Origin: an uncultured Myxococcales bacterium
Lineage (GTDB): Bacteria; Desulfobacterota; Binatia; UBA1149; CAITLU01
Reading direction: 5' to 3'
Assembly: GCA_964475235.1 (NCBI GenBank)
Contig: CAYYVZ010000002.1
Span: forward strand, 1-39,110
Length of the DNA: 39,110 bases
The position numbers were made by a program, and so were the translations under genes. Under the pieces are notes generated by a model that worked only from the letters and a program-made list of their open reading frames with translations, made no database searches and was not told where the DNA came from. Below are positions 17,514-39,110 of this stretch, piece after piece; within the stretch, counting starts at the first letter, position 1; each line of letters starts with the position of its first letter.

Positions 17514-17602
17514 GGTGCGCCACTCGTACGCCTGGCGGGCTGCGAAAGTGACCGTCGAACGTGCTTGGCCGCGTAAGTTTGGGCATAATTCCCTCACCCC
17601 GG

Positions 17603-18226: not shown

Positions 18227-18228
18227 CT

Positions 18229-18257: not shown

Positions 18258-18278
18258 ATGAGTACGCACGATGAGTTG

Positions 18279-18941: not shown

Positions 18942-19397
18942 GTTGTGATCCCTCCCCGCGGGAGCCACGCCGGTTCCCGGCGATGTCCGCGCGCAACGCG
19001 ATAGAGCACTGGCCAAGCTGTCGCAAAGAGTACGCCTCTGACTCCATCGCGTTTTTTCCGCGCGTGCACTGCATGAGAAACGCGGCTCGCTCGACCAACG
19101 GGCAAGGCGCCCAAATCGAAACACGGTCGCCCCGAAGGAGAAGCGTCATGGGAAAGGAAACTCATCAGGGGAGAGTGCAGGACGAGGGAGCGCCGTTTCC
19201 GATCGAGCGTCAGCGCCGTCGAGTGGCAGACCAGGGCACAGGCGGGCAGGGCGGCTCGGGCGCCGGCGGCGTCCAGAAAGGTGAGGCCCACAGCCGAGAC
19301 CGCGAGAAGGACAAGAAAGGCCGTCGCAACAAAGGGCGAACCGAGCACTGAAAAACACCGGGGCAGTCATGGATCGCCCCGCGGTGAACGGACGTCG

Positions 19398-20729: not shown

Positions 20730-20944
20730 GAGCGGGCCCCCCAAAGGCTCGCGCCGACCGGCAACTACCGAATGGGTCCGACCTCCAACCTGCCCTCACG
20801 GCAGGCATCCCCAGGAGTCGAACCCGTGGCTTGGCTATAGAGGTCGCGTGGCCGTTTCGCCACCACTTTTCTGGATGGCGAGCTCGAAGGGATCGAGGAG
20901 TCGCCGGCCGGTCGATCGATCTTCGGAGAACTTCGGGAAGCGAT

Positions 20945-21882: not shown

Positions 21883-22130
21883 CTGTGTCTCCTTTCGCTT
21901 GCGCGATCGGCTCACGAAGAAGACCCGCCACCGGAGGCAAGCAACTTCGTTCGCGCCTTCTGGAGAGACGTGGCGCGAAGAGTTGTCATTCCCATTCGGT
22001 CAAAAGGAGACCCACTTGCCACCCGATGACGACTCGATCGCGCATGTTCTTCGACAGAGGTGCCGATGGAGCGCCGGAGCGCGTGGAGCGAACAGGGATG
22101 ACAGAGAGGGAAGGGGGGTCGCAGCCCCGA

Positions 22131-25100
22131 TCACTCGATGACGACGCGAGTGCTCGCGGAGTGCCCGTAGACGTCCGGCGAGTACATCTCCTCGGCGCGA
22201 GCCGGCGGTACCACGAACGTTCCGGGGGTCGTCGCGCGTGCCGTGTACTCGTAGTCGTGGGAGCCGGGCCAGAGCAGCGAAGCGAATGCTTCCGCTCGGT
22301 CGTCGCGAAGATTCTGGTGGATCTGCCACGTCCTGTTCCACCAGCCGAAGTACATGTCGTCTTCGTAGAAGTCGTAGTAGCTCGGCGTCGCACCGGTGCC
22401 GGAGACGGGAGCAATGGGTTCGAGGCCGGCCGGAAGCGGATCCACCAGGGCGACCTGGTAGCGGCGTTCGTTGTTCCTCATCCCCACACGGACTTTCACG
22501 CGCGCGCCGAGGCGGATCTTCCACGACCCGTCGCCCTGCTGGACGACGTCGCGTGGATCGTCGGCGCCCTCGTACCGGCGGTCGACGACGAAGCCGCGCT
22601 CGGCAGGAACGAGGTCGAGCGCTTTCGGCGCGTAGCGCAGCGCTGCGCGGTAATAGAGCCTTCCCGGCCCGTCCTTGGCGATGGCAAGCGGCCCCTTCGA
22701 GCGCGCGAGGATGTCCGGCGTCGAGACCTTGAACGCCGCGCTCTCCGTGGAGCGCCCGCGGAACGCGTGCTCGCCGGCAAACCCATCGCCGAGCCAGACC
22801 TTCGCGAGAAAGTCCGGCTCTTCCTTCTCGAACGTTCGGAAGTACGTGTTGAGCGCAAGCAGCGCGAAGGCGTTGTCCTGGGTGTTCGACCACTGGCCCG
22901 ACTTGCGCTGCGCGAGCAGGCCGGCCGTGAGCTTCGGAATGACGGCGAGATCGGGACGTGCGCGAATCAGCGCCTCGAGCACCACGCCGTCGCTGCGGGT
23001 GGTGCTGTAGAACAGCAGCCTCGCGCGGTCTTCGTAGTCGGCCGGGAAGCTCGCGGTGCCGGAAGTCTCGCGCACGCGGCCGAGCACGCAGTCGGTGAGC
23101 GCCTTCTTCTCGGGTGTCTTCGTCGCGGCGATCGCCCCGAGCATCCAGCCGCAGGCTTCGGCCGGGACCTTGTCCGTGCCGCCGGCGCGCGCGATCACTT
23201 CGCGGACCCTGGCGACGTCCACGTCGCCGGAGAGAGCACGCACGTAGAGCGCATAGCTCGACGGCACCGCGCGCATCCACGAGGTGTAGAAGTCCGGGAC
23301 GGAGCCTTCGACGGTTCGCAGATAGCCGAGGCCCTTCTCGATCGCTTCGGGCGGGACTTCGTAACCGCGCTCCTTCGCACGAAGAAGCGCGTGCGTCGCG
23401 TGCGCCGTGACGAACGGGCTGGACGCCTCGCTCGCGCTCCACAGCCCGAAGCCTCCATTGGCCCCCTGCCGCTTGACGAGCTCCTTCAGGTGAGCCTCGA
23501 CGCTGCTGCGGATCGCCTCGGGGCTCGGCAAGCCGGACGCACGGAAGGAGGACAGGACGTCTTCCATCGCAACCACGGCGAGGATGCGCGACGACATCTG
23601 CTCCGCACATTCGTAGGGGTACTTGACCAGATAGAGGATCGCGTCGGTGAGCGACTGGAGGTTGGTGGACGAGGTGGTGACGTCGAGGCCGCCGACTCCG
23701 GGCCAGACGCCGTCCGGAAGCGCGAGGGGATGATGGACGGCGCCTTCGTCGACGACGCCGTAGACGGAAGCCGACTGCATCGCAGCCGGTGTGGATACGG
23801 GAAGCGTGACGCTCGCCGCATCTCCGGCCTCGCTGCTGGCCGCGACCACGTCGAAGGAAGCCTGGCCCGGAACGCCGGCGGCCGCCGGGAAGCGAAGCTC
23901 GACGCGGTCGTTCGCGGGGATCGTCACTTCGCGTCCGGCGCCCTGCGTGAGCGAAAGATTGCTCGCGCGCAGGGCGACCTTCACCGACGCTTCACGATCC
24001 GTCCGGTTCTGCACGACGACCGGCAGGTCGAACACGTCGCCGAAGTTGAGAAAGCGCGGTGCGCTCGGCCTCACCACCAGCGGCAACTCGGCGGTGATCG
24101 ACGCTTCCGCCTTGCCGAAGCGCGCGGCATCCGCGGCGGCGATGGCCATGATGCGGTAGCGCGTCACGCTGTCGGGCAGCTTGAACGAAGCGGAGGCCCT
24201 CCCTTCGGCGTCGGTCACGAGCGCGGGGAAGAACGCTGCGAGCGGGCTCATGTCCTTGCGCAGGAAGAGGGGAGGCGGCGCGTCACCGAAGCCTCCCGGC
24301 GCCTCCTCCGGCTCTCCGTACGCGCCGCCCAGGGCTTCGCCGGCCGGAACCTCGCCGCGCAGCAGCAGGTGCTCGCGTGAATGCCAGTCGCTGGCTCCCG
24401 GCCCGCGGTCTGGATGGAACGTTTTGATGGGATCGCCGAGAGAGTGGTTGGAGAGCGCAAGGATCGCCTCGTCCACGACGAACACCGCCACTTCGGCGCC
24501 GGCAACCGGCGCGCCCTTCGCGTCGCGCACGGAGATGGCGAAGCCGGCCTCGCTTGCCGGTGTGACGCTCGCGCGATCGGGAGCGACCGACACGTCGAGG
24601 ATCCGCGACTTCGGCGTCACCCGGAACTGGATCGCACCGCTCGCGTACGCAGGCCGGGGCGGCAGCGGAGCGCCGCCGTCCGGCTGCGTTCGCGGCGCCT
24701 GGCCGACGGCATCCACCTGCACCTGGAAACTCGGGGCCAGCGAGTCGGTGATGGGTACGTCGATCGACATGGTTCGCTCGAGCCGAAGCCGCTTCGTGTC
24801 GACGATGCCGCTGCGGCGAATCGTGACGGTCGCCTCGGCCGGATAGAACGGCGCGCCGATGGTGACTCTTGCGGTCTCGCCGCCGGCGTACTGCCTGCGG
24901 ATGCTCGAGAGCTCGATCTTCTCCTCCCGGACTCCCGTCGATTCGTCGCGATACCATCCGCTCGCATAGAAGGACGAGACCGTCTGGCTCACCCGTCCCT
25001 GCGGATCGGCAATCGACGCGAGGATGTCGTAGCTGCCGCCTTTCGCCGCATGAAAGCGGCAGGTCACCGGCTCGCGACCGCTCGTCACGAAGCAGCGCTG

Positions 25101-28097
25101 GACGTCCGTGGTCCGCTTTCCGTAGGTCCCGTCGCGATAGCCCCATTCCGCGCGGGAGGCCGTCACGTCGATCGGCGCGCCCGCGGCGATCCTGCCGTCG
25201 CGGTCGACGCCGATCACCGAGACGGTCACGTCGGTGCCGGGATCCACGTAGGACTTGTCCATGCGCAGGCCCACGTACAGGTCGGCGGGATGGACGATCA
25301 GCGAGGACTTCCTGTTCCAGGCCTGGCGATTGACGTCGATGACTTCGGTCTCCGCGGTCACCTTCATCGGTACGGCGGGATTCGCGCTCACGAGGTCGAG
25401 GTGGAGCGTGTGCGAGCCGTCCTGCCCGGTCGTGCCGCTGCTCGTCGCCGCCGGCCCGCGCGAGTAGCTGTAGTAATCGTATTCTCCGCCGTCGTACTCG
25501 CCGTATCCCCACGATGGGATCGCGCCGAAGTCGTACTCGCTGTGACCGGGTGGCACGAAACGGGTTTGCGACGAGCTCACCGTCCAGCGCACCGGCGCGC
25601 CGGCCAGCGGTCCGCCCGCGAAGTAGCTCGCGTCCACGCGCATGTCGGCACCGCCCCCGACCAGAGCGGGGCCGCCCGGCGACGACGCCTTCACTTCGAA
25701 CTCGGGACGCCGGAACTCGCGGATGTCGATCGTGTGCTCGCCCGAGCCGGCGAGGCCGAGCGCCGCCGCGTTGGTCAGCCAGAGCTCGATCGTGGCTTCG
25801 CCGAGATTCGCTTCAGGCGAGAGCTTGAAGCGTGCATCGAAGCCGCCGGCCGCGCTGACGTTCGACTTGCCTTCGGCCACTGTGTTCTGGCGCGCGTCGC
25901 GCACCCGGAACTGCACGCCTTCGAGCCAGGACGGCATGCCGACGTCGCCGCGCTTGCGGAAGTCCACCGTGCGGATCCAGCCCTTGATCGCGACTTCCTC
26001 GCCGGGCCGGTAGGTGCCGCGGTCGTCGTCCACGTGCCAGACGAGCTTGCGGTCGGTCGCCCCTGACCAATCGCTCCAGTACCAGTAAGAGCCTTCGACG
26101 AACGCGGAGTCGGCCCCGCGGCGTGCCACGAGGACGATGTCGTTGCGACGAGTCCCGTCCGGCATCGCCAGGGTCACGAGCCCGTCTCTGCCGGTGCGGC
26201 CGGAGATGCCGCCGGGCTCGAGCGACACGTCCACGCCGCTCGCCGGCGCGCCGCTCGCGAGCTCGCTCACGTACACCGTCACCGACTCGCGGTCGGCGAA
26301 CGCATCGAGGCCGAGATGCGTCAGCTGAATCCACGCCGTCGATTCGCCGGAGCGGTAGAAATCGTCGTCGTCGGCCTTCTCGACTTTGTCGGGACCGATC
26401 GCGACGATCGCATGCCCGAAACCTTCCGGACCCACGGCCGCGCCGAGGTCGATGTCGAGGACACGCTTGGCGCCGCGCGTTCCCGTCACGACGATCGTGT
26501 CGTCGAAGACCTTGGTTCCCGGCGCCTTCGAATAGTCCTTGTCGCCGTAACCGGCTCCCCAGCTCGACCAGGCCTCGTGGTCTTTCGGCTCGACTCGCCA
26601 GATCTTCAGCGCGAGCCGGTCGTAACCTTGCAGCTCGACCGGCACGGCCGGCTTCGCGCCGGGTTCGAGCACCGTCATTCCCCACGGCGCACGGAGGGAT
26701 GGATCGGCTTCCGCAACCCGCCACGCGCGCTTCTCGTCGCGGCCGAGCTGCTGGCCGCGCGTGTCGGTGATCTTGCCGGAGAACTTCACCTCGTACGTCG
26801 CGAGCGGCTGGACCTCGCCGCGCACGCGCAGCGTCGTCCCCGAGCACGACACGCTCATGTCCTCGATCGAAGGCGACACCTCGACGAACGAAGAAGTGCA
26901 GCTCGCCGGATCGAGCTCGGTCGAGAATCCCGCTTCGAAGCTGTCACCCGGGTCGCATGCCGTACGCTCGCAGGTCGCGTCGGTGATGGAGAGGGGAGGG
27001 AGCGTATAGAACGAGACGCTGCGCGCACTCCTGCTCGGATTCGGGCCCTCGGCCGATGGGACTCCGGCGAGGATCTCGATGGCGATGTGCGCGTTACGCG
27101 GCCACGGCGCGTCGCTCTTGAGGATGAGCAGGCGGTCGGTGCGTGCGTTCTCTCCAGCGGATTCGAGGAATTTCTTCAGGCGCGGGTCGGCTTCCTGCGC
27201 AGCGGCGACTTCGGCGTCGCTCGCGAGGCGCACAGCGGCTGCGTTCTTGGCGGCGCTGACCCTGACCAGCGGCAGCACATCGGCCGGAACGATCCGCTGG
27301 TCGAACTGGAGGACGATGGGCGTCTCGAGGCTGCCTCGCTCGTAGCCCGGCGGATAGCTGCCGACGACGTTCGGGCCGCCGGTGGTGAACGAGAACCGCT
27401 TTGCCTCGGCCAGCACGCCTCCGGCCGAGCTTCGCATTCCTGCCGGAATCTCGACTTCGTACGGCGTGGCCCCGGCCAGGCGGTCGGTCGCCTCGAACTG
27501 AAGCGTGCGCGAGTCCTTCCAGCGCCAGCTTCCCTCCGCCGCGGGCGTGATCTTCACCGGGGAACCTGCCGGCGCAGCCTCCGCCCACGTCGTCGCCATC
27601 GGCTGGCTGAAGACGACCTTCACGTACTTCGTGTCGCCGGTGTTGCCTTCGGGACTCCATTCGACGACGCGAAGTGGCGTGGGGACGGCGACCGTGCGCG
27701 GCGCGGGCGGCGAGGGCTCACGGGGCGGAGGAATCTGTTCTCGGGCAGGGGCTGCCGAAGGCGGCGGCGGACCGGGCTTCAGCACAGGCGCGCCGGCCGG
27801 CGCAGGTTCTGCGGCGGTGGCGGCCGGGAGCCGCGCGAGCAACCCGGTCGTCTCCTCGTCGGACAGCCTTCGCGCTTCCGGAGTTCGGGCGCGCTCGGGC
27901 GCCGGCGCGCTCGCCTGGCCTTCGGTCAGCCGCAGCGTCAGCCCGCTCGGAGCCTTTTCGATGGATTCGATCCGCGCGGCGAGATCGGCGGGCGGGGCCT
28001 GCAGCCGACCTGGACTGTCGCAGCTCGCTGCGAAGGCGGCAGCAACGACGAGAAGGATCGCGCGCGCGCTTCTTCGAATGTCGGAACGCGAGCGCAT
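22131..28097 (-). CDS. Alpha-2-macroglobulin family lipoprotein with an intact thioester, 1988 aa
   Basis: Lipoprotein signal MRSRSDIRRSARAILLVVAAAFAASC. A Pro/Ala-rich tether is followed by many Ig/MG-like domains. The thioester motif KYPYECAEQMSS places CAEQ at the complement of 23598-23609 (Cys1497). The thioester-domain helices include NGGFGLWS. Start taken at the ATG at 28097, not the track start at 28220. Confidence 0.9.
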   Translation of the reverse strand: MRSRSDIRRSARAILLVVAAAFAASCDSPGRLQAPPADLAARIESIEKAPSGLTLRLTEGQASAPAPERARTPEARRLSDEETTGLLARLPAATAAEPAPAGAPVLKPGPPPPSAAPAREQIPPPREPSPPAPRTVAVPTPLRVVEWSPEGNTGDTKYVKVVFSQPMATTWAEAAPAGSPVKITPAAEGSWRWKDSRTLQFEATDRLAGATPYEVEIPAGMRSSAGGVLAEAKRFSFTTGGPNVVGSYPPGYERGSLETPIVLQFDQRIVPADVLPLVRVSAAKNAAAVRLASDAEVAAAQEADPRLKKFLESAGENARTDRLLILKSDAPWPRNAHIAIEILAGVPSAEGPNPSRSARSVSFYTLPPLSITDATCERTACDPGDSFEAGFSTELDPASCTSSFVEVSPSIEDMSVSCSGTTLRVRGEVQPLATYEVKFSGKITDTRGQQLGRDEKRAWRVAEADPSLRAPWGMTVLEPGAKPAVPVELQGYDRLALKIWRVEPKDHEAWSSWGAGYGDKDYSKAPGTKVFDDTIVVTGTRGAKRVLDIDLGAAVGPEGFGHAIVAIGPDKVEKADDDDFYRSGESTAWIQLTHLGLDAFADRESVTVYVSELASGAPASGVDVSLEPGGISGRTGRDGLVTLAMPDGTRRNDIVLVARRGADSAFVEGSYWYWSDWSGATDRKLVWHVDDDRGTYRPGEEVAIKGWIRTVDFRKRGDVGMPSWLEGVQFRVRDARQNTVAEGKSNVSAAGGFDARFKLSPEANLGEATIELWLTNAAALGLAGSGEHTIDIREFRRPEFEVKASSPGGPALVGGGADMRVDASYFAGGPLAGAPVRWTVSSSQTRFVPPGHSEYDFGAIPSWGYGEYDGGEYDYYSYSRGPAATSSGTTGQDGSHTLHLDLVSANPAVPMKVTAETEVIDVNRQAWNRKSSLIVHPADLYVGLRMDKSYVDPGTDVTVSVIGVDRDGRIAAGAPIDVTASRAEWGYRDGTYGKRTTDVQRCFVTSGREPVTCRFHAAKGGSYDILASIADPQGRVSQTVSSFYASGWYRDESTGVREEKIELSSIRRQYAGGETARVTIGAPFYPAEATVTIRRSGIVDTKRLRLERTMSIDVPITDSLAPSFQVQVDAVGQAPRTQPDGGAPLPPRPAYASGAIQFRVTPKSRILDVSVAPDRASVTPASEAGFAISVRDAKGAPVAGAEVAVFVVDEAILALSNHSLGDPIKTFHPDRGPGASDWHSREHLLLRGEVPAGEALGGAYGEPEEAPGGFGDAPPPLFLRKDMSPLAAFFPALVTDAEGRASASFKLPDSVTRYRIMAIAAADAARFGKAEASITAELPLVVRPSAPRFLNFGDVFDLPVVVQNRTDREASVKVALRASNLSLTQGAGREVTIPANDRVELRFPAAAGVPGQASFDVVAASSEAGDAASVTLPVSTPAAMQSASVYGVVDEGAVHHPLALPDGVWPGVGGLDVTTSSTNLQSLTDAILYLVKYPYECAEQMSSRILAVVAMEDVLSSFRASGLPSPEAIRSSVEAHLKELVKRQGANGGFGLWSASEASSPFVTAHATHALLRAKERGYEVPPEAIEKGLGYLRTVEGSVPDFYTSWMRAVPSSYALYVRALSGDVDVARVREVIARAGGTDKVPAEACGWMLGAIAATKTPEKKALTDCVLGRVRETSGTASFPADYEDRARLLFYSTTRSDGVVLEALIRARPDLAVIPKLTAGLLAQRKSGQWSNTQDNAFALLALNTYFRTFEKEEPDFLAKVWLGDGFAGEHAFRGRSTESAAFKVSTPDILARSKGPLAIAKDGPGRLYYRAALRYAPKALDLVPAERGFVVDRRYEGADDPRDVVQQGDGSWKIRLGARVKVRVGMRNNERRYQVALVDPLPAGLEPIAPVSGTGATPSYYDFYEDDMYFGWWNRTWQIHQNLRDDRAEAFASLLWPGSHDYEYTARATTPGTFVVPPARAEEMYSPDVYGHSASTRVVIE

Positions 28098-28323
28098 CGG
28101 CCGCCGCGAGCATGGCGGCCGAGCACGCGCGAGACAAGCGGCGTTTCGGCAGAACGCCTGAAACGGAAGGCGGGCGGTGATGCCGGCCACCGTCGAAGGC
28201 AGCACGCGACGTTCCAGCACCTGCCCATCTTGTGTTGGCGGCGCCCCCTCGGCACGAACGCGACCGGGCGCGGTGGCCCGGAAGCTCCTGAAGGCGCCCG
28301 GGCGGCGCGGAGGCGAGAGAGGA

Positions 28324-29094
28324 ATGAATTACGAAATCCGGGCGCTGTCGTTCAGCGAGATCCTCGACACCTCTTTTTCGATCCTCCGCGAGAACTTCGT
28401 TCTGCTGGTGGGCGTTTCGGCCAGCATGTACCTGCCGATCGCGATCGTCTCGGCGTTTCTCGGCCAACCCGTCGCCGAGGCCCAGCCCGAGCTGGACGTG
28501 CAGGACCTGTTGGCCGGGCTGTTCATCCTGGTTTACCTCTCGGTGCTCTGGCCGATCGTGACCGCCTCGCTCGCGCATGCGATCGGCGAGATCTACCGCG
28601 GCAACCAGGTCACCATCGGTGCCGCACTCTCGCGCGGCTGGAAGCTGATCCTGCCGCTGTCGGGGACGGCGATTCTCGCCTGGACGCTCACCCTGTTCGG
28701 CCTGATCCTTCTCGTCATCCCCGGCATCTATCTCATGCTCGCGTGGTCCCAGTGGACCAACATCGCCGTGCTCGAGGACACGTTCGGGTACAAGGCGCTG
28801 AAGCGAAGCTCCGAGCTCGTCCGCGGGTATCGCTGGCGAACCTTCGGCCTGTTCTTCGTCATTGGGATCGTCGTGTGGGTGCTGTCGGTAGCCGTCAGCC
28901 TCACGCTCGGGTTCGTGCCGTTGGTCGGTCCGCTCGTCGAAGGGGTGGTTCAATCCATCGGCGGCACGTTCACGTCGATCATCCTCGTGGTGATGTACTT
29001 CGACCTGCGCTGCCGAAAGGAGCAGTTCGACATCGAGCACCTCGCGACCATCGTTTCCTCTCCGGCTGCCGAAAGCGCTGCTGCGCTTTCCTGA
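28324..29094 (+). CDS. Polytopic membrane protein, 256 aa, GP-PDE-membrane-domain-like; first gene of the MoxR cluster
   Basis: MNYEIRALSFSEILDTSFSILRENFVLLVGV followed by 5-6 TM helices and YFDLRCRKEQFD near the C-terminus. GAGAGAGGA lies just upstream of the ATG. Confidence 0.7.
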   Translation: MNYEIRALSFSEILDTSFSILRENFVLLVGVSASMYLPIAIVSAFLGQPVAEAQPELDVQDLLAGLFILVYLSVLWPIVTASLAHAIGEIYRGNQVTIGAALSRGWKLILPLSGTAILAWTLTLFGLILLVIPGIYLMLAWSQWTNIAVLEDTFGYKALKRSSELVRGYRWRTFGLFFVIGIVVWVLSVAVSLTLGFVPLVGPLVEGVVQSIGGTFTSIILVVMYFDLRCRKEQFDIEHLATIVSSPAAESAAALS

Positions 29095-29103
29095 ACCAGC
29101 ACG

Positions 29104-29721
29104 TTGGCGACTCCGGCCGGCTCGGACGAGGAAATCCGCCGCCTCGCGCGCGAGATCCTGAGCGAACCCGAGTTCGCACGCTGGCGGCCGGCCGCCATGG
29201 GGTCGCTCGAGGAGACGCTGATCGAATGGCTCAACTGGATCGTCCGCTTTCTCTCCGGAACGGCGGACGTGAGCCTGGCGGCCTACGTCGTCTTCTGGTG
29301 CGCGCTCGCGGCGTTCGTTCTCCTTCTGGGTTCCCAGGCCGTGCGAACGATCCGCGCCGTGCGCGCGCCGCGGGTCGCCGTTGCGCGCCCTACGCGTGAG
29401 GCCCGCACCACCGATTTCGCCGCCGAAGCCGAAGCGTTCGCGCGCGAGGGGCGCTACCTCGAGGCGGCGCACTGTCTTCACCTCGCGTGCATCGAAGCGC
29501 TTCTGCAACGCGGAGTGCTGCGCCTTTCGCGGTCCGAGCCCAACCGCACGCTGAGGGCTCGCCTGCGCGCGTCCTCGCTGCCGGCGGCGGACTCCGAAGA
29601 GCTCTGCCGCCTTCTCGACAGCATGGAGTCGTCGTGGTTCCGCACGCGCCAGGCGGACGCACCCCTCTACGAAGCGTGGCGCGCGGCACACCGGCGCCTC
29701 GCCGGCGGAGCGGCCAGGTGA
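29104..29721 (+). CDS. DUF4129 domain membrane protein, about 205 aa (TTG start; start uncertain)
   Basis: AREILSEPEFARW, one TM (AAYVVFWCALAAFVLLL), then AEAFAREGRYLEAAHCLHLACIEALLQRGVLRLSRSEPNRT. This is the DUF4129 pattern. Lies 9 nt after the upstream stop. Confidence 0.65.
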   Translation: MATPAGSDEEIRRLAREILSEPEFARWRPAAMGSLEETLIEWLNWIVRFLSGTADVSLAAYVVFWCALAAFVLLLGSQAVRTIRAVRAPRVAVARPTREARTTDFAAEAEAFAREGRYLEAAHCLHLACIEALLQRGVLRLSRSEPNRTLRARLRASSLPAADSEELCRLLDSMESSWFRTRQADAPLYEAWRAAHRRLAGGAAR

Positions 29722-30923
29722 GCACGCTGCAGCGGGCCGCGCTCCTTTCGGTGTTCTTCGGCCTCATCGTCGTCGGCTTCTTCGCGCAGAGCGACGGCCG
29801 CGAGGTGACGACGACGAGCTTCGGCGAAACACCGAAGGGCTACCGCGCCGCGTACGAGTTGCTGCGACGCCTCGCGGTTCCGGTCAGCCGCAGCTCTTCC
29901 GATCCGGCTGCGCTCGCGCCGGGCACGCTCTGGCTGATCGACCCGCCGCGACTCTGCGGTCCGGCAGCGCAGGTGATGCCGATGGACGACTACGGCGCCG
30001 ACGGGACGCTGTCCGGATGGGTGCGGCGCGGAGGAACGCTCGTGCTGTTTCTCGACGCGGGATCGAACGACTCGTGCGACGCGATTGCCGGCTTCGACCT
30101 GCCGATGCTCGATCCACTCGTCTGCCAGCCGGGAGCGGAGAACGACGGTGATCCCGGGGAGCAACAAAAGGCTGGGAAACCCCCGTCGATCCAGCAGGAA
30201 ACCGGCAAATCCGGAACCGTGGAAATGACCGGGCGCCTGGCCGCCTCGCCTCGCCGGCTCGAATCCGTCCTGCGCACGTTCCTGCCCGGATCCACGTGGG
30301 AGACCGTGCTCGACGCGAACGGCAGTCCGTTCGTGGTCGAACGCGAGCTCGGCGACGGGCGCATCGTCGCGATCGCCGACGCCCGCGTCGCCAGCAACCA
30401 GTTCCTCGACCTGCACGACTCCGCGCTGCTGCTCGTGGACGTGGTGCGTGCGTACGGCGACCCGACGATCGACGAATGGCTGCACGGGTTTCGCACGCAC
30501 GAGAGCCTTCCGCTTTATCTGCTTTCGTCGCCGGCGCTGCCGGTGTTCTGCGGCATCGCGCTGCTCGCGCTCGCGCTCGCGTGGTACGGTGCGGTCGTGC
30601 CGGCCCGAACCGCGCGGACGCACCTCGAGCCGCCGTCCCTCGACGGCTCGATCGATGCGCTGGCCGCGGCCTACGCGGCGACGGCAGACTACCCGTCCCT
30701 GCACGAACGTTACCGCCACTATGCGTCCGGCCGGCTGCGTCACTTCCTGGGAATGCCTGCCGACACGGCGCTCGACGTGCTCGCCGGCGCGCTCGAGCGG
30801 CGCCGCCGCATTCCCCGCGATCGTGTGCACGCACTGTTCGACCGCAAGGCGGCCGGCGAGCGCGACGACATGATCGACCAGATGCACCGACTCGACCAGC
30901 TCATCCAGGAGGCCCGCCCATGA
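29718..30923 (+). CDS. DUF4350 domain protein, 401 aa
   Basis: The GTG start overlaps the upstream stop (GTGA). N-terminal TM, then GYRAAYELLRRLAVPV...GTLWLIDPP...WVRRGGTLVLFLD, a second TM, and a helical C-terminus. Confidence 0.65.
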   Translation: MSTLQRAALLSVFFGLIVVGFFAQSDGREVTTTSFGETPKGYRAAYELLRRLAVPVSRSSSDPAALAPGTLWLIDPPRLCGPAAQVMPMDDYGADGTLSGWVRRGGTLVLFLDAGSNDSCDAIAGFDLPMLDPLVCQPGAENDGDPGEQQKAGKPPSIQQETGKSGTVEMTGRLAASPRRLESVLRTFLPGSTWETVLDANGSPFVVERELGDGRIVAIADARVASNQFLDLHDSALLLVDVVRAYGDPTIDEWLHGFRTHESLPLYLLSSPALPVFCGIALLALALAWYGAVVPARTARTHLEPPSLDGSIDALAAAYAATADYPSLHERYRHYASGRLRHFLGMPADTALDVLAGALERRRRIPRDRVHALFDRKAAGERDDMIDQMHRLDQLIQEARP

Positions 30924-31870
30924 GTTCGCCCGACGTGGACTTCACGAAAGACAGCTACGAACGGATCGCATCGGCGATTCGCGAAGTCGTCATCGGACAG
31001 GACGAAGCGCTGCGCCTCGTCTTCGCAACGCTCGTGTGCCCGGGACACAGCCTGATCGAAGGCGTTCCGGGTCTCGCCAAGACCCTGCTCGTGCGCTGCC
31101 TCGCGTCGGCGCTCGGCATCCGCTTCGGGCGCGTGCAGTTCACGCCGGACCTCATGCCGAGCGACATCACCGGCACGCCGATCCTGCAGCCGAACAGCGG
31201 CCGCGTGGAGTTCCGTCCGGGCCCCATCTTCACCGACCTCCTGCTGGCCGACGAGATCAACCGCGCATCGGCCAAGACCCAGGCGGCCCTGCTCGAAGCG
31301 ATGCAGGAAAGCGCCGTCACCGTGGACGGCCAGCGCCACGAGCTGGGTCCCGACTTCTGCGTGTTCGCGACGCAGAACCCTGTCGAGCACGAAGGCACCT
31401 ACGCGCTGCCCGAGGCGGAGCTCGACCGCTTCCTCTTCAAGATCGTCGTCGGCTATCCGGACGAGGCCGACGAGATCGCGATTCTGGCGGGCCACCACGC
31501 GCATCCGCGCAGCGCCGTTCCCTCGGCGATCCTCGACTCCGCGGACCTGGCGCGCTGCCGCGAAGCCGTGCGCGGCGTCATCGTGCGCGACGAGATCGTC
31601 GCGTACACGACGGCGCTCGTCCGCGCCACGCGCTCGGACGCCAACTTCGCACTCGGTGCGTCGCCGCGCGCGGGCGTGTTCCTGCTGCGCGCCGCCAAGT
31701 GCGGCGCCGCGATCGCGGGCCGCGACTTCGTGCTGCCCGAAGACGTCCAGGAGATGGTTCTGCCCGTCCTCCAGCACCGCGTGCAGCTCCAGCCGAGCGC
31801 GGAGATCGAAGGTTTGTCCGTCGGCCGCGCGCTGCAGGCAACGATGTCGAGCGTGACCGTCCCGCGCTGA
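30920..31870 (+). CDS. moxR: MoxR-family AAA+ ATPase, 316 aa
   Basis: VIGQDEALRLV, Walker A EGVPGLAKT, Walker B LLLADEINRA, sensor-1 FATQNP, EAELDRF. The ATG overlaps the upstream stop (ATGA). Confidence 0.93.
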   Translation: MSSPDVDFTKDSYERIASAIREVVIGQDEALRLVFATLVCPGHSLIEGVPGLAKTLLVRCLASALGIRFGRVQFTPDLMPSDITGTPILQPNSGRVEFRPGPIFTDLLLADEINRASAKTQAALLEAMQESAVTVDGQRHELGPDFCVFATQNPVEHEGTYALPEAELDRFLFKIVVGYPDEADEIAILAGHHAHPRSAVPSAILDSADLARCREAVRGVIVRDEIVAYTTALVRATRSDANFALGASPRAGVFLLRAAKCGAAIAGRDFVLPEDVQEMVLPVLQHRVQLQPSAEIEGLSVGRALQATMSSVTVPR

Positions 31871-31886
31871 CGGTACCGGCACGGCG

Positions 31887-33224
31887 ATGATCGGACCCTC
31901 GACGAGACTGCTGCGGCTGTTCGCGGCCTGGACGGCGTCGGCGCTGCTGGTGGTCGCGGCGCCGGGACTCGCGCCGGTGGCGTGGAGCGCACTCGTCGCA
32001 CTGGCCGTCGTGCTCGCGTGGGATGCGCGGTCGCTGGCGCGCGAGCCCCGCATCGCGGCAAGGCGGATGCTTCCCGACCGGGCTTTCGTCGGGCAGGACA
32101 TCGAGATCGGCGTCGAGATCGCGAACGCCGGCACGCGCGGCGTCGCCGTCGAGGTCATCGACGAACCGGCGGACGACCTGCGCCGCGACGAGCCTCTGCT
32201 GCGAGCCGGCCCCGTTCCCGGCGGCGACCGCGTGGTCGTGACGTATGCCGCACGACCCGGGAAGCGGGGAAACCGCCCGTTCGGTTCGATCCTCACCGTC
32301 GCGGACTCGCCGCTCGGGCTGCTGCGCCGGCGCACGGTTCACGAATCCCCGGCGTCGCTGCGGGTGTTTCCGAGCGCGGCGCAGTCGTTGCGCGAGGCGC
32401 TGCGGGATCCTGCCGGGCTCCTCGTCGACACGGGCGCGAAGCCCATCCGGCGCCGCGGCGAAGGCATGGACCTCGAGTCGCTGCGCGACTACGTGGAAGG
32501 CGACGACCCGCGCCGTGTGCACTGGGCAGCGAGCGCGCGCCGCGGCCGACCCGTCGTGCGCGTGAACCAGCACGAATCGAATCACGCCGTGCTGCTCGCC
32601 GTGGACACGAGCCGTCTCATGGGCGTCCAGGTCGAAGGCCGCAGCAAGCTCGACTACGCGGTCGATGCCGCGATCGCGCTCGGCCTCGCGGCTCTCGGTC
32701 ACGGAGATCGCGTCGGAGTCGCGGCGTTCGACGCGAAGGTGCACGCGCTGGTGGCACCGCGCGGCTCGCGCCGGCAGCTCGCGTCGATCGTCGATGCGCT
32801 TCAGCCCCTCGAGCCGTCGGCCGGCGAAGCCAGCTACCGGGATCTCGTGCGCACGCTCTGTGCCAGGCAGCGCCGGCGCTGCCTGGTGATCGTGCTCACC
32901 GATTTCGTCGAGATCGATCCCGAGTCGCTCGTGTTGCCGCTGCGGACGCTGTCGCGCCAGCACGGCGTCGTCGTCGCCGCGCTGCGCGACCCCGTCTTTC
33001 TCGAGCTCGACCGCGCGGCGCCGGACGCCGTGCCGCACGCCGGTCCGTCCGCCGAGATTACGATGATGCGCCGGCTCGTGCTCGACGACCTGGCCGCCGC
33101 GCGCGAATCGACGCTCGCGCAGCTTCGGCGCGCCGGCATCTCGACCATCGACGCGATGCCGCGCGCGCTCGGGGCATCGCTGGTCAATCGCTATCTGGAG
33201 CTGCGCTACGGGCCGGAACGATGA
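31887..33224 (+). CDS. DUF58 (vWA-like) protein, 445 aa
   Basis: Two N-terminal TM helices. LRDYVEGDDPRRVHWAASARRGRPVVRVNQHE is the DUF58 signature. LLAVDTSRLM is a MIDAS-like segment. Confidence 0.88.
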   Translation: MIGPSTRLLRLFAAWTASALLVVAAPGLAPVAWSALVALAVVLAWDARSLAREPRIAARRMLPDRAFVGQDIEIGVEIANAGTRGVAVEVIDEPADDLRRDEPLLRAGPVPGGDRVVVTYAARPGKRGNRPFGSILTVADSPLGLLRRRTVHESPASLRVFPSAAQSLREALRDPAGLLVDTGAKPIRRRGEGMDLESLRDYVEGDDPRRVHWAASARRGRPVVRVNQHESNHAVLLAVDTSRLMGVQVEGRSKLDYAVDAAIALGLAALGHGDRVGVAAFDAKVHALVAPRGSRRQLASIVDALQPLEPSAGEASYRDLVRTLCARQRRRCLVIVLTDFVEIDPESLVLPLRTLSRQHGVVVAALRDPVFLELDRAAPDAVPHAGPSAEITMMRRLVLDDLAAARESTLAQLRRAGISTIDAMPRALGASLVNRYLELRYGPER

Positions 33225-34254
33225 GCGCGGACATCCATTCGGTCGAGGGCGGAGCGTCTTTCGCGAGCCTTCGCGTGGTGACGAGGACACCGGCGACGAG
33301 GGCGCAGCACGCGGCGACGACGAGAAAGCGCGCCCCGGTCGAGATGCCCGACTCGCGCACGAAGCTCTCGATGAACGCGGCCAGCAGGAACAGTGGAATC
33401 GCCATCGCGAGCAGCATGAGGGCCGACGGAACCGCCGTGCGCAGCGCGGCAGCGCGCCCCCGGCGCCCCGGAAGCGCCACCGCTTCGCCCAGCAGCAGCC
33501 CGCCGGCGGCGCAGAGCGAGATCGCGCCTAGCTCGGGAATCCCGTGCGGAAGGATCCACGCGAGGAAACGCCAGGCGAGGTCGTCGCGCAGGAAGACGGC
33601 TCCGAGCGCTCCGAGCACCAGACCGTTGTAGATCTGCAACAGAAGTGTCGGGACGCCTGCGAGGATGCCGACGGCGAACGAAAGCAGGCCAACGCGCGTG
33701 TTGTTCGCGAACAGCATCGAGCCGAAGAACGCACGCTCGGAAAGGTCCGAAGCTTCCCACTGGAGGAAGTCCTCGCGAGCTTCGCGCGAGGACCAGAGCT
33801 TCTCGAGCGAGGCCGGGGAGTAGCCGAGCTGACGGGGGACGAACGCCGTCAGCGCCTCGGGCGTCGAGCGCGCGAGCACTCCGCCGACGAACACGCCCAT
33901 CGCGAGCAGCGACCACGCAAGGACCTGCGCGTGCCAGGTTCGCCTCAGTGCGTCGGCTGCGCGGCTCGTCCATGGCGTCGGGCCGGATCCGGCGTCGGCC
34001 GCCGGCGGCGCTGGCAGCAGCGTGTGGGCACGGACGCACAATGCGTTGACGTAGCGGATGTGGTCGTCGTCGCTGCCCGCTTCGCGCAGTCTCGCGAGTC
34101 GCGCGGCGTGGATCCGGTACAGCGACACGAGCTCGCGAAGATCGTCCAGCGCAACGCCGCGCAGCCGGGTCTTCTCGCTGCGGTCGAGCAGGAGCTCGAA
34201 TCGCTTGGCATCCGAAATCGTTTGCGTTCTATTTCTGCCCGCTGCGGTCGTCAT
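33184..34254 (-). CDS. Stage II sporulation protein M-like (SpoIIM/DUF95) membrane protein, 356 aa
   Basis: N-terminal soluble helical region (RFELLLDRSEKTRLRG...LYRIHAARLARL), then a polytopic region FANNTRVGLLSFAVGILAGVPTLLLQIYNGLVLG...LPHGIPELGAISLCAAGG. ATG at 34254. The 3' end overlaps the DUF58 3' end by 41 nt. Confidence 0.8.
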   Translation of the reverse strand: MTTAAGRNRTQTISDAKRFELLLDRSEKTRLRGVALDDLRELVSLYRIHAARLARLREAGSDDDHIRYVNALCVRAHTLLPAPPAADAGSGPTPWTSRAADALRRTWHAQVLAWSLLAMGVFVGGVLARSTPEALTAFVPRQLGYSPASLEKLWSSREAREDFLQWEASDLSERAFFGSMLFANNTRVGLLSFAVGILAGVPTLLLQIYNGLVLGALGAVFLRDDLAWRFLAWILPHGIPELGAISLCAAGGLLLGEAVALPGRRGRAAALRTAVPSALMLLAMAIPLFLLAAFIESFVRESGISTGARFLVVAACCALVAGVLVTTRRLAKDAPPSTEWMSALIVPARSAAPDSD

Positions 34255-34321
34255 CGGTGGTTCGGTTCGATCCGAGCGTAGGCCCAGGCGCGGCGTCATT
34301 CCAGTGCAACCTCGTCAAGAA

Positions 34322-35131
34322 GTGCTTACCGCCGAGTCCGTGCGGCTCGATCTTCCTGTGGCCGGGCCGGCGAGCAGGATGGCGGCGTACGCCATCGACT
34401 TCCTCGCGATCTCCGTGCTCGCCCTGCTGGTGGTCGTGCTCTTTGCGGGTTCCGGCACGCTCGCCAGCTGGATCGTCGAGCAGTTCAGGGAGCTTCTCGC
34501 GCTGATTCCGGAGCCCGGCGAGCCGCCGGACGTCGAACGGATCCGCACCTTCGTGCTCGTCTCGGTCGTGGTCGCCCTGACGCTGCAGCTCGGCGTGGAG
34601 CTGCTGTACTTCGCCTTCTTCGAACGGGTCTGGCGAGGCCAGTCGCCCGGCAAGCGCCTGCTCAAGCTGAGGGTCGTCAGCGACGACGGCGGCGGTGTGT
34701 CGGCGAACCAGTCCGTGACGCGCAACCTGCTGCGTGTCGCCGACATCCTGCCGGCCCAGTACATCGTCGGCCTCGCGTCCATGCTGAGCTCGACCAGCGG
34801 CAAGCGGCTCGGCGACTGGGCGGCAGGCACGATCGTGATTCGCCTCGATCGCCCGGCCGGCGCGGCGGCAATCGACGACGAGCCCATGCCCGGCGACGAA
34901 ACGTTCGTGTTCGATGCGCAGCAGCTGCGGACGATGGGGCGCGTCGAGCTCACGCTTCTGCGGCGCGCGCTCCGGCAGGCCGACGACGCCGACTCCGAAG
35001 CGCGCGCACGAATACTCGAGAAGGCGACGACCGCGCTCGCCTCGCGCATGGGCTACTCCGCGCCGGTCGCGCCCGGACAGCAGCGGGCGTTTCTGCGCGC
35101 CCTGCACCGCGCCGTGACACTGCATCGTTAG
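34322..35131 (+). CDS. RDD family membrane protein, about 269 aa (GTG start at 34322 or 34304)
   Basis: PASRMAAYAIDFLAI...FFERVWRGQSPGKRLLKLRVV...NLLRVADILP...GKRLGDWAAGTIVI is the RDD-domain pattern. Divergent from the SpoIIM-like gene. Confidence 0.78.
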   Translation: MLTAESVRLDLPVAGPASRMAAYAIDFLAISVLALLVVVLFAGSGTLASWIVEQFRELLALIPEPGEPPDVERIRTFVLVSVVVALTLQLGVELLYFAFFERVWRGQSPGKRLLKLRVVSDDGGGVSANQSVTRNLLRVADILPAQYIVGLASMLSSTSGKRLGDWAAGTIVIRLDRPAGAAAIDDEPMPGDETFVFDAQQLRTMGRVELTLLRRALRQADDADSEARARILEKATTALASRMGYSAPVAPGQQRAFLRALHRAVTLHR

Positions 35132-35235
35132 CGGACCTGCCGCACCGTTCAGCGGCGCTGCACATTTCCGGAGCGAGCGTTCCGTCCCTGCGCGGGCTGG
35201 GCCGATCGGCGAGCTCCGTGCTACGGTGCTCCGTC

Positions 35236-37161
<1,926 letters not shown>

Positions 37162-37223
37162 GATCGGGGACGGATCCCGATTTGCCCCGGGCCGCCGCCG
37201 CTGCTTTCCTGTGCGGCCGCCGG

Positions 37224-37598
37224 ATGATCGAACCGATTCGCAAGCTCGTCGCACGACGCCTTCCCGCCGCGCTCTGCCTGCTGGCCGCGGCGATGCAGGT
37301 CGGCCTGCCGGCTCTGCATGCGCCGCACTCGGCGAGCATCCGTCCGGAAGTCGTCGCCGCCGGCGGCGCCGCCGTTCTCATCGACGCTCGGAACGTTGCC
37401 GACGAGGGTCCTCACGACCCGGCGTCGTGCTCGCAGTGCCGCCTCGTCTCCCAGCTCAAGTCGCTGGCCCCGCTTTCCGTCGTCGCCGCTCTTCCCGCCA
37501 TCGAGGCCCGCTGGCTCGGGGCGACTCCGGCGGCCGGTCTGCTCTCCCACGCCGGACACGGGACCGGCGCGCCGCGCGCTCCGCCCTTCCTCGCCTGA
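37224..37598 (+). CDS. Small DUF2946-like protein, 124 aa
   Basis: N-terminal hydrophobic helix LPAALCLLAAAMQVGLPALHAP, a central HDPASCSQC motif, and C-terminal GAPRAPPFLA. This resembles the DUF2946 layout of TM, His/CxxC and C-terminal R(A/G)PP. Confidence 0.5.
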   Translation: MIEPIRKLVARRLPAALCLLAAAMQVGLPALHAPHSASIRPEVVAAGGAAVLIDARNVADEGPHDPASCSQCRLVSQLKSLAPLSVVAALPAIEARWLGATPAAGLLSHAGHGTGAPRAPPFLA

Positions 37599-37722
37599 AC
37601 AGCACCTTTTCCGTTTCTTTCCGACGGTAGTGCGCGCGGCGTATCTGCCGTGGCCGAGCATTCGCGCGTTTGCGCGCATCTGCGGTCGCGGGCGTCGCGT
37701 TCGTACAGGCAAGGAGTCCAAC

Positions 37723-39110
37723 ATGTTCTCATCGCACCGCGTGCCGCCCCTTCGAAGGGCGGCCCGCATCCTTTTCTTCATGACCCTCGTCGTTGCGCTT
37801 CCGGCCGCTCCGGCCCGCGCGGGCGATACCGAAGCCGAGATCCGCTCGCTCCGCGAGGAGGTGGAAACGCTGCGCCGACGTGACGACGAGAACCGCGCGC
37901 GCATGGCCGAGATGGAGCGCATGCTGCGCGAGGTCCTCGACGCGCGCGCGGCGACGCCGGCCGCGACTCCGCACGGCACGCCGGCCGCGCGGCCGGGTTC
38001 GGACGCCTCGTCGCAAGCAGCCACTGCCACCACGCCGGCCGAGGCTCTCGACCGCGCGCTCGCTGCCTCACCATCGGCACCGACACCGGCGCCGGCGGCA
38101 GGCGGCGCAGGCGGCGATCTTGCGTCGGCCACCATCGGCGGCGGGGCGGCGCGCGCGCGCCTGATCGACATTGCGTTCTCGACTCTCGTCGCCGGCGGCG
38201 GTTCGTCGGTGGGCAACGAAGCGCTGGGCGAGCTTCAGGGCGGCGGTCACGATCCGAACCAGAACGGGTTTACGCTGCAGCAGGGCGAGCTGTCGCTGAC
38301 CGGCGCCGTCGATCCGTACTTCTCGGGCGAGGCGCACATCGTTGCGTCGCTCCACGGCGTCGAGCTCGAGGAGGCGTTCCTCACGACGAGCGCGCTGCCG
38401 CTCGGCCTCCAGGTCGAGGCGGGCTACTCGCTGACCGAGTTCGGCCTGATCAACCCGACGCACGTGCATGCATGGGACTGGCTCGACCAGCCGGTCGTCA
38501 ACACGCGCATGTTCGGCAGTGAGGGGACGCGCTCGCCGGGCGCACGCCTGGCGTGGCTGCTACCCGTGCCCTTCTTCGCGGAGCTCCACGCGGGCGTGCA
38601 GAACGCCAACGAAGGCGAGTTCACGCCGAGCTTCATGGCCGCCGAAGGGGTCGGCGGGAGGCCGAGCGTGGATCGCGACGTGCGCGGCTTCGACGACCTG
38701 CTCTGGCTCGTGCGCGCGAACGCGTCGTGGGACCTGACGGACCAGACCGCGCTGCTCGTCGGAGCATCGGGCCTCTACGGCCCGAACCAGACCGGCTCCG
38801 ACGGAGAAACGTGGATCTACGGGATCGACGCGAAACTGAGATGGCGGCCCGCCGACAACTTCCGCGGCTGGCCCTTCGTGCTGTGGCAGACGGAGGCGAT
38901 CGGCCGCAGCTACCACGCCGACGGTTTCGTCGCGGGCACCGACATCGATCCGGCTTCGGGCGAGTTCCCGAACGACCTCGCCTCCGGCACGCTGCACGAC
39001 GAAGGCTTCTACACGCAGCTTCTGGTCGGATTTCACTACGGCTGGGCGGCCGGGCTTCGTGCCGAGTATGCGACGGGAAGCGGCGCGAGCATCGCCGACG
39101 GCATCCTCGT
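37723..39110 (+). CDS. Outer-membrane beta-barrel / porin-like protein with an N-terminal coiled coil. Partial: runs off the right edge.
   Basis: Absent from the ORF track because it has no in-window stop. AAGGAG at 37711-37716 precedes the ATG at 37723. Signal peptide MFSSHRVPPLRRAARILFFMTLVVALPAAPARA. Coiled coil EAEIRSLREEVETLRRRDDENRARMAEMERMLREV, an Ala/Pro linker, then alternating beta-strand-like sequence (GGGHDPNQNGFTLQQGELSLTGAVDPYFSGEAHIV...YGIDAKLRWRP...). The frame is open for 462 codons. Confidence 0.75.
   Translation, partial: MFSSHRVPPLRRAARILFFMTLVVALPAAPARAGDTEAEIRSLREEVETLRRRDDENRARMAEMERMLREVLDARAATPAATPHGTPAARPGSDASSQAATATTPAEALDRALAASPSAPTPAPAAGGAGGDLASATIGGGAARARLIDIAFSTLVAGGGSSVGNEALGELQGGGHDPNQNGFTLQQGELSLTGAVDPYFSGEAHIVASLHGVELEEAFLTTSALPLGLQVEAGYSLTEFGLINPTHVHAWDWLDQPVVNTRMFGSEGTRSPGARLAWLLPVPFFAELHAGVQNANEGEFTPSFMAAEGVGGRPSVDRDVRGFDDLLWLVRANASWDLTDQTALLVGASGLYGPNQTGSDGETWIYGIDAKLRWRPADNFRGWPFVLWQTEAIGRSYHADGFVAGTDIDPASGEFPNDLASGTLHDEGFYTQLLVGFHYGWAAGLRAEYATGSGASIADGIL

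Follow-up and report, generated by a model that had tools for sequence, protein, structure and literature searches.

The stretch of DNA analysed here (39,110 nucleotides of contig CAYYVZ010000002.1 from an uncultured Myxococcales bacterium, referred to as the window) contains at positions 28324 to 35131 a compact cluster of seven genes, G1 to G7, centred on a MoxR-type AAA+ ATPase and its DUF58 partner. The products are listed below with their lengths in amino acid residues (aa).
28324..29094, plus strand: G1, polytopic protein with four transmembrane (TM) segments, GPDPase_memb/DUF7847/DUF975-like superfamily; 256 aa; GC content at third codon positions (GC3) 0.87
29104..29721, plus strand: G2, divergent single-pass DUF4129 protein; 205 aa; TTG start
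29718..30923, plus strand: G3, DUF4350 protein; 401 aa
30920..31870, plus strand: G4, soluble MoxR (MRP-type) AAA+ ATPase; 316 aa
31887..33224, plus strand: G5, DUF58 protein with a von Willebrand factor A (vWA)-like domain; 445 aa; ATG start
33184..34254, minus strand: G6, DUF8413 plus SpoIIM/DUF95 protein; 356 aa; convergent with G5
34322..35131, plus strand: G7, RDD-family membrane protein; 269 aa; GTG start; divergent from G6

The G+C content is high throughout the window (about 65-72%) and long spurious open reading frames (ORFs) are therefore frequent, so coding frames were judged by GC3, which is 0.82-0.90 for the seven ORFs and lower in the alternative frames. The seven genes and their junctions, as given in a preliminary description of this DNA, were confirmed: G1 and G2 are separated by 9 nt (stop at 29094, TTG at 29104), G2 and G3 overlap by GTGA (29718-29721), G3 and G4 by ATGA (30920-30923), and 16 nt lie between G4 and G5 (stop at 31870, ATG at 31887). 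The sequence AGAGAGGA is found immediately 5' of the G1 ATG. The 3' ends of G5 and G6 converge with an overlap of 41 nt (33184-33224), which is also kept in the metagenomic relatives L001 and L003/L004; convergent DUF58/SpoIIM-like pairs overlap in 10 of 35 loci and have stops less than 100 nt apart in 29 of the 35. The overlap leaves no space for a terminator, so antisense interference between G5 and G6 is possible. Alignment with the homologues from L001, L003, L086 and L088 placed the G7 start at GTG 34322 and, with the G6 start also set by homologue alignment, most likely at 34254, the divergent spacer is 67 nt. No terminator-like signal above background was detected within G1-G5, a scan for promoters and terminators was uninformative (no promoters, and one terminator-like site, below the shuffle mean), and there was no Rfam match in the window.

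Pfam identifies five of the seven products directly (DUF4350, MoxR, DUF58 with VWA_2, SpoIIM and RDD), in agreement with the family labels first assigned; the DUF4129 label of G2, which has no direct Pfam match, stands only as that of a divergent member. Hydropathy predicts four TM segments in G1, one in G2, two in G3, none in G4, a two-TM hairpin in G5, five in G6 and two in G7, such that six of the seven products, all but MoxR, are membrane-anchored as had been proposed. A third TM segment in the G7 frame is present on the long ORF from 34058 and lies upstream of the annotated start at 34322.

In the scan that determined the distribution of the cluster, each GTDB species was represented by a single genome; MoxR served as the query because DUF4350 alignments contained no stretch conserved enough to be usable. 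The 80 loci with the most similar MoxR (43-56% identity) were analysed with six-frame ORFs and hidden Markov models (HMMs) built iteratively from the window proteins. The order G1-G5 on one strand was found in 68 of the 72 loci with enough flanking sequence, including all 49 from the Actinomycetota, all nine from the Bacteroidota, all three from the Gemmatimonadota and four of five from the Chloroflexota, while 31 of the 43 loci evaluable for the full set have all seven genes inside 10 kb. Synteny outside the source genome, on which the preliminary description had made its proposal depend, is thus present across phyla (Actinomycetota, Bacteroidota, Chloroflexota, Gemmatimonadota, Armatimonadota and Poribacteria), and recurrence of the same order at this frequency in several phyla is far beyond chance. 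The full set is kept in the metagenomic relatives L001, L003/L004 and L086, and L005 ends at a contig edge. All but three (L009, L041 and L062) of the 80 nearest MoxR homologues are encoded in this type of cluster, indicating that ATPase and partners have been inherited together. No eighth gene conserved across phyla was found among the GTDB loci.

The window contains all seven families of the neighbourhood represented by Mycobacterium tuberculosis Rv3689-Rv3695 (moxR2 is Rv3692) and M. abscessus MAB_0386c-MAB_0392c, which have the same order and strands (PMC8191103), with G1-G5 collinear on one strand and the SpoIIM/RDD pair adjacent; the layout of the Mycobacterium loci L059, L069 and L076 is identical to that of the window. 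By best-match context and identity, G4 groups with the MoxRs of this neighbourhood and not with Bat-type or other MoxRs; the closest MoxR among the GTDB representatives is no more than 56% identical to it and identity to the actinobacterial loci is about 48-50%. The actinobacterial clusters differ further in that G1 is longer (ORFs of about 350-450 aa), G2 scores as DUF4129 in Pfam and, in mycobacteria, the neighbouring genes are others (glpK). The locus is a further, divergent copy of a widespread, uncharacterised seven-gene system and not a new kind of system. It had been put forward as the strongest candidate in the window for an uncharacterised multi-component system; it is both conserved and uncharacterised, as is the mycobacterial-type cluster, but its novelty was overstated, given the mycobacterial copies and the description of parts of the set in 2015. 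That no role has been established for the gene set was upheld, as the literature yielded only comparative-genomics notes of 2015 and incidental omics listings; no published functional study was found in open-access full text, a search that could miss subscription-only papers. Three candidate reports were set aside: MSMEG_6606-6612 (SigF regulon) and the Riemerella Bat operon concern other MoxR clusters, and SCO3014 is a small gene upstream of mtrA that does not belong to this cluster.

The linkage of the G1-G5 core to SpoIIM/RDD survives in three arrangements. G6 and G7 are downstream and convergent in the Actinomycetota, Chloroflexota, Armatimonadota and the lineage of the window. They are upstream in the Bacteroidota (Segatella, Prevotella, Pedobacter, Hymenobacter), where RDD on the minus strand is followed by SpoIIM, G1, G2, G3, G4 and G5, all on the plus strand. 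In four genomes of the Gemmatimonadota (Longimicrobiales and others) an N-terminal RDD and a C-terminal DUF8413-SpoIIM form a single ORF of 594-789 aa:
L008, 5454-7823, minus strand: RDD-DUF8413-SpoIIM fusion
L013, 12230-14038, minus strand: RDD-DUF8413-SpoIIM fusion
L035, 12265-14088, minus strand: RDD-DUF8413-SpoIIM fusion
L036, 8900-10684, minus strand: RDD-DUF8413-SpoIIM fusion
These natural fusions are Rosetta-stone evidence that G6 and G7 act together, and the contiguity of the RDD C-terminal domain with DUF8413 in them places both on the same, cytoplasmic side.

The two parts of the cluster are not always close. In the chromosome of Streptomyces sp. cg28 (L022) a complete 16S-23S-5S rRNA operon on the minus strand (12395-17552) lies between DUF58 and SpoIIM/RDD, which accounts for about 30 Streptomyces draft contigs that end just past DUF58. 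At locus L088, from a metagenomic relative, SpoIIM and DUF58 are parted by an insertion of about 8 kb (11019-19165) made up of chemotaxis-type and two-component genes for a CheB/CheR-PAS fusion, a HisKA_3 kinase and response regulators; the insertion indicates that the two modules can be separated. Such loci raise the possibility that the G1-G5 operon and the SpoIIM/RDD pair are two functionally independent units, neighbours by inherited order, a view also consistent with the absence of SpoIIM/RDD inside 10 kb in seven loci that have the core (e.g. Kribbella, Arthrobacter and Nesterenkonia) and with the location of G6 on the opposite strand in most lineages. Inherited order cannot, however, account for a linkage that is found in at least six phyla in three arrangements, one of which, in the Bacteroidota, has SpoIIM first and co-directional with G1-G5. 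Every examined context of DUF8413 plus SpoIIM homologues also contains MoxR-DUF58, and functional independence of the two units is considered quite unlikely.

In Streptomyces, Actinomyces, Kribbella, Arthrobacter and others, the two-component genes mtrA-mtrB are immediately upstream of and divergent from G1 (L017, 3923-6614; L022, 2441-5285; and about 35 further actinomycetotal loci). Their scores against the NCBIfam equivalog models, 375-397 bits for mtrA and 543-715 bits for mtrB, are well over the cut-off, and in Actinomyces, Kribbella and Arthrobacter the spacer between mtrA and G1 is less than 100 nt. This adjacency suggests that the cluster shares regulation with a two-component system of the cell wall and cell cycle.

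G4 matches AAA_3 (E 4.8e-59, 198 bits) and AAA_lid_2 (E 1.2e-21), and its Walker A (GVPGLAKT) and Walker B (LLADEINRA) motifs and its sensor/arginine residues are intact; the best match to a PDB sequence is 2R44, an uncharacterised protein (E 3.3e-67). G5 matches DUF58 (PF01882, E 6.8e-31) and VWA_2 (PF13519, E 1.6e-9), while a PDB sequence search with it gave no match. Its predicted topology is an N-terminal TM hairpin at residues 8-45 followed by a cytoplasmic vWA-like domain. The canonical DxSxS motif of the MIDAS, an adhesion site dependent on a metal ion, is absent from G5, which has D240-T-S-R-L, the arginine being R243. In the corresponding columns of 84 orthologues the aspartate is present in 83, the next aligned residue is glycine in 60 or serine in 24, the arginine is invariant (84 of 84) and T, L, V or M occupies the fifth position.

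G4 also has a secondary Pfam match to bpMoxR (PF20030, 36.9 bits, cut-off 27), which would be in keeping with a MoxR-vWA system for anti-phage defence or biological conflict; Kaur et al. are said to have described, in 2020, MoxR-vWA modules in conflict systems. The bpMoxR match lies beneath the far stronger AAA_3 match, PADLOC gave no matches for any of the seven proteins and Pfam detected no beta-propeller or effector domain in the cluster. Unlike a mobile defence island, the cluster holds a fixed place across whole genera beside housekeeping genes (mtrAB and the rRNA operon). A role in defence is accordingly the least probable of the explanations that were weighed, and is considered highly improbable.

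Clusters of the Pseudomonas TgpA type consist of MoxR, DUF58 and a transglutaminase, and DUF4129 is the C-terminal domain of TgpA-like transglutaminases. The bifidobacterial PFNA operon has the MoxR and DUF58 core of the window and, again as in the window, an adjacent Ser/Thr kinase. Unlike the PFNA and TgpA clusters, the window has DUF4129 as a separate bitopic protein and a DUF4350 ectodomain where those clusters have the transglutaminase; none of the window cluster proteins has a transglutaminase match in Pfam and an FN3 protein is likewise absent from the cluster. The Bat (Bacteroides aerotolerance) operon, MoxR-DUF58-BatA-BatB-BatC-BatD-BatE, for which stress and envelope phenotypes have been reported (PMC11834572), resembles the window in having an MRP-type MoxR followed by DUF58 together with membrane partners. 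It differs in that MoxR is the first gene, not the fourth, and in having extra vWA-TM proteins, a tetratricopeptide repeat (TPR) protein and BatD/E; no BatA/BatB vWA-TM, TPR (BatC) or BatD/BatE domains were found in the window cluster or its flanks, and the Bacteroidota carry the seven-gene cluster apart from Bat (L010, L058 and others). Pairs of MoxR and vWA proteins such as RavA-ViaA, NorQ-NorD and MoxR1-RipA are known to act as assembly chaperones (cited in PMC11834572). In these pairs and in CbbQ-CbbO an AAA+ hexamer and a vWA adaptor are encoded side by side, as are their putative counterparts in the window; however, their adaptors have a canonical MIDAS and soluble or respiratory enzyme clients, whereas the window adaptor has D-x-(S/G)-R and is membrane-anchored.

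Of the three membrane proteins upstream of MoxR, G3 is the best defined. It matches DUF4350 (E 3.6e-15) and its AlphaFold2 (AF2) model, with a predicted local distance difference test (pLDDT) score of 86.5, has, after its N-terminal anchor, an alpha/beta ectodomain, then the second TM segment and a cytoplasmic helical tail of about 105 aa. The ectodomain, predicted to be extracytoplasmic, is GldG/GIFT-like (class I glutamine-amidotransferase-like), the Foldseek matches of its model being the trimerisation domain of a GH42 beta-galactosidase (E 5e-5) and the N-terminal GIFT-like domain of IFT52 (E 4e-4, range to 5e-4). This matches the published assignment to GldG and beta-galactosidase domains (PMC5898192). 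Catalytic-type residues are not conserved in G3, where conservation is confined to N227 and glycines, and a PDB sequence search gave no match. A DExxHG motif before the second TM segment was considered as a DUF4350 catalytic site and rejected, since it is kept only in the subfamily of the window and lost in the wider family.

G2 does not match Pfam DUF4129 even at E 10, and nor do its close homologues. Its positional orthologues from other phyla match PF13559 in 26 of 30 cases, and an hhalign comparison of the G2 family with them gave a probability of 98.5% (E 1.5e-15, 192 columns), which together identify G2 as a divergent DUF4129 protein with WF in place of the YG motif of the family. A C-terminal helical domain follows the TM segment, and a K/R-rich stretch directly after that segment places the DUF4129 domain in the cytoplasm by the positive-inside rule. 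The extra N-terminal signal-like segment of the Bacteroidota orthologues is consistent with this topology. G1 has no direct Pfam match, while among 30 of its positional orthologues 18 match GPDPase_memb, 12 DUF7847 and six DUF7544. Its conserved residues include R161, Y225, R229, E233 and D236, and a C-terminal motif, Y-x-D-x-R-x-R-x-E, is conserved.

G6 matches SpoIIM (E 3.5e-30), and DUF8413 plus SpoIIM (PF28475 and PF01944) is the architecture of every one of its listed homologues, of which the close ones with named taxa are metagenome-assembled genomes of the Myxococcota. The AF2 model (pLDDT 89) has an N-terminal three-helix cytoplasmic DUF8413 domain and then a helical membrane bundle, within whose TM helices are invariant polar residues (NN, N, HGxxE, R and E). 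A Foldseek search of the model against the PDB gave nothing at E<=0.001 (best E 0.27, TM-scores <=0.21), and PDB sequence searches with G6 and G7 gave no match. G7 matches RDD (E 1.1e-17) and has a conserved C-terminal domain of about 100 aa. The polytopic SpoIIM domain is common to G6, the SpoIIM of the Bacillus subtilis DMP engulfment complex and the DUF95/SpoIIM proteins of circular-bacteriocin clusters. G6 differs from both in its additional N-terminal DUF8413 domain and its pairing or fusion with RDD, and no SpoIID/SpoIIP, bacteriocin precursor or transporter is encoded nearby: neither SpoIID nor SpoIIP was found within the window, and neither a conserved small ORF nor an ABC transporter across the loci. 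Many hosts of the cluster also belong to non-sporulating phyla, such as the Bacteroidota and Gemmatimonadota.

A comparable gene set has been described in archaea, where arCOG01314 (DUF4350) together with MoxR (COG0714) and vWA was predicted, citing similarity to GldG, to form a novel secretion or membrane-remodelling complex, and bacterial SpoIIM homologues adjoining vWA and COG0714 genes were recorded in the same work (Makarova, Galperin & Koonin 2015, PMC5898192). The archaeal system shares with the window the DUF4350-MoxR-vWA triad and a membrane-anchored GldG-like ectodomain. Its Ig-like or S-layer-type partners (arCOG02884 and others) are not in the window cluster, and the DUF4129, GPDPase_memb-like and RDD partners of the window are not described for it. 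This prediction, with the fold relationship reproduced here, can be extended to a secretion or export apparatus in which the SpoIIM-like protein, RDD and G1 form a conduit, the DUF4350 ectodomain an outer scaffold, and MoxR-DUF58 assembles or energises the whole. SpoIIM/DUF95 is obligatory in clusters for the export or maturation of circular bacteriocins (PMC8659200), and the invariant N, N, H, E, R and E residues inside the TM helices of G6 would fit a conduit. Neither a cargo gene, a precursor peptide, an ABC transporter nor an outer-membrane component is conserved in or beside the cluster, however; the G6 model resembles no solved transporter, and the cluster is unchanged across the very different envelopes of the Actinomycetota, Bacteroidota and Gemmatimonadota. 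An export function is therefore regarded as unlikely.

The reading favoured here, which is given about an even chance of being correct, is that the seven genes, orthologous to M. tuberculosis Rv3689-Rv3695, encode an envelope system in which MoxR-DUF58 builds or remodels a complex of the envelope with a part in cell-wall or division homeostasis. It would comprise two linked modules, the co-directional, translationally coupled G1-G5 operon and the G6/G7 pair. The hairpin-anchored, vWA-like DUF58 adaptor would recruit the soluble MoxR hexamer to the inner face of the membrane, and the two together would use ATP to assemble, disassemble or conformationally switch the membrane partners, as we infer from the established behaviour of RavA-ViaA, NorQ-NorD, CbbQ-CbbO and MoxR1-RipA (references in PMC11834572). 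Remodelling may act by way of the helical tails that G2 and G3 are predicted to have in the cytoplasm. Outside the membrane G3 would present its GldG/GIFT-like domain, putatively non-catalytic and of an oligomerisation or glycan-binding type, and the polytopic G1 would complete the module. The SpoIIM-like/RDD membrane pair probably works as one unit. In the predicted topologies five of the six membrane proteins have helical domains on the cytoplasmic side, where MoxR and the vWA domain are located. A docking domain common to the cytoplasmic tails of G2, G3, G6 and G7 was looked for and rejected, all hhalign probabilities being <=1.1%.

Cell-envelope homeostasis tied to cell-wall growth or division is the most likely physiological role, and sporulation, defence or a pathway of the flanking kinase and alpha-2-macroglobulin (A2M) is less likely. 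Co-immunoprecipitation (co-IP) with Rv0954, of the M. tuberculosis divisome, recovered the SpoIIM-like Rv3694c and the RDD protein Rv3695 together with PbpA and LamA (PMC8093794), and the one SpoIIM that has been characterised serves as a scaffold for peptidoglycan hydrolases (PMC5898192). One D-cycloserine-resistant mutant has a nonsynonymous change in Rv3690. These observations and the mtrAB adjacency point to the envelope and to division; they are circumstantial and not decisive.

Several points weigh against the envelope reading. Part of the set is missing inside 10 kb in 12 of the 43 evaluable loci (in seven the core is there but SpoIIM/RDD are not, and in one RDD alone is missing), so the G6/G7 module is not obligatorily adjacent. 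The HMMs were built from the same loci to which they were applied, such that the detection of G1 and G2 is sensitive and the calibration is not independent. As an invariant arginine replaces the serine of DxSxS in DUF58, the usual metal-bridged contact between a vWA domain and its client may not apply, and the four cytoplasmic helical domains are mutually unrelated and thus offer no common docking motif. The mtrAB adjacency is missing in Mycobacterium and could be inherited gene order, not co-regulation; the Rv0954 co-IP counts were low (9-10 spectra, PMC8093794); and the co-downregulation of the block in M. chelonae spans about 15 contiguous genes, which could reflect deletion or silencing.

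A more specific, and much more tentative, version of the envelope reading is that DUF8413-SpoIIM/RDD acts within the membrane as an enzyme or gate, at the site of division or of wall growth, and is switched on and off by MoxR and the MIDAS-less DUF58 via the DUF4129 and DUF4350 tails. It is suggested by the invariant N/N/H/E/R/E residues in the TM helices, by a confident G6 model that has no match in the PDB and by the natural fusion to RDD, and is considered improbable.

The genes that flank the cluster in the window are as follows.
1439-3349, minus strand: carboxyltransferase
3400-5133, plus strand: carboxyltransferase
about 5136-7901, plus strand: biotin carboxylase/biotin carboxyl carrier protein-type protein
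7955-9253, minus strand: Uma2-family protein
9407-10585, minus strand: HpiC1-cyclase-like protein
12098-13501, minus strand: LPG_synthase_TM protein
within 1439-20744: DUF192 protein, CCG/4Fe-4S protein, CDP-alcohol phosphatidyltransferase and histidine kinase
20989-21915, minus strand: secreted W/R/Y-rich protein, 308 aa, no family match
22131-28220, minus strand: bacterial A2M, 2029 aa (A2M, bMG10, MG2, Big_5), between G1 and the gene of the 308-aa protein
35218-37161, plus strand: Ser/Thr kinase, Pkinase at residues 331-587, preceded by an N-terminal region of about 320 aa with three weak hydrophobic segments
36771-38216, minus strand: overlapping ORF, no Pfam match
37228-39110, plus strand: long GC3-supported ORF, 627 aa seen, running past the end of the window, no Pfam match

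From LPG_synthase_TM onward the gene order agrees with that of L001. Several of the genes at 1439-20744 encode enzymes of lipids or their head groups and could have a bearing on a membrane system. In the kinase the domain layout is the reverse of the usual PknB type, and its matches in PADLOC and NCBIfam are to generic kinase models only. L086 has a 329-aa gene upstream of G1 that was compared with the 308-aa gene of the window and is unrelated to it.

The preliminary description had also suggested that the upstream A2M and the downstream Ser/Thr kinase may be functionally attached to the cluster, and neither suggestion was borne out. In L001 a 306-aa homologue (66% identity) of the 308-aa protein is encoded directly beside G1 with no A2M between them, and the absence of A2M from this closest relative identifies it as a lineage-specific insertion in the window. 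A kinase is 3' of RDD only in the window and L001, two closely related contigs, while in L003/L004 a dual-specificity phosphatase occupies that position. The kinase and the phosphatase at this position, and the report that the PFNA kinase Pkb2 phosphorylates the MoxR ATPase of its cluster (PMC8430577), are what would favour a signalling or protease-defence accessory in which the kinase phosphorylates MoxR and A2M takes part. No conserved kinase, phosphatase or A2M neighbour was found across the 80 GTDB loci, and this want of synteny argues against a general link to the kinase; such an accessory role is considered very unlikely.

Among AAA+ systems without an assigned client, MoxR ATPases with their DUF58/vWA partners rank with the most widespread, and the SpoIIM and RDD homologues of non-sporulating bacteria are likewise unexplained. 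Seven such uncharacterised families form one conserved unit in at least six phyla, including M. tuberculosis, antibiotic-producing Streptomyces, where the unit is beside mtrAB, and human-gut Segatella and Prevotella, and the window copy adds a divergent member from an uncultured, high-GC lineage. Handles for experiment are provided by the RDD-SpoIIM fusion, the MIDAS-less adaptor with its invariant arginine, the predicted cytoplasmic docking tails and the co-IP link to the divisome, and the comparative evidence, namely the fusion, the arrangements, the mtrAB adjacency and the adaptor, makes the question of MoxR/DUF58 and SpoIIM more testable in model organisms. Were DUF8413-SpoIIM/RDD indeed an enzyme or gate switched by MoxR and DUF58, the cluster would represent a new class of ATP-regulated envelope-remodelling machine common to M. 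tuberculosis, Streptomyces and the gut Bacteroidota.

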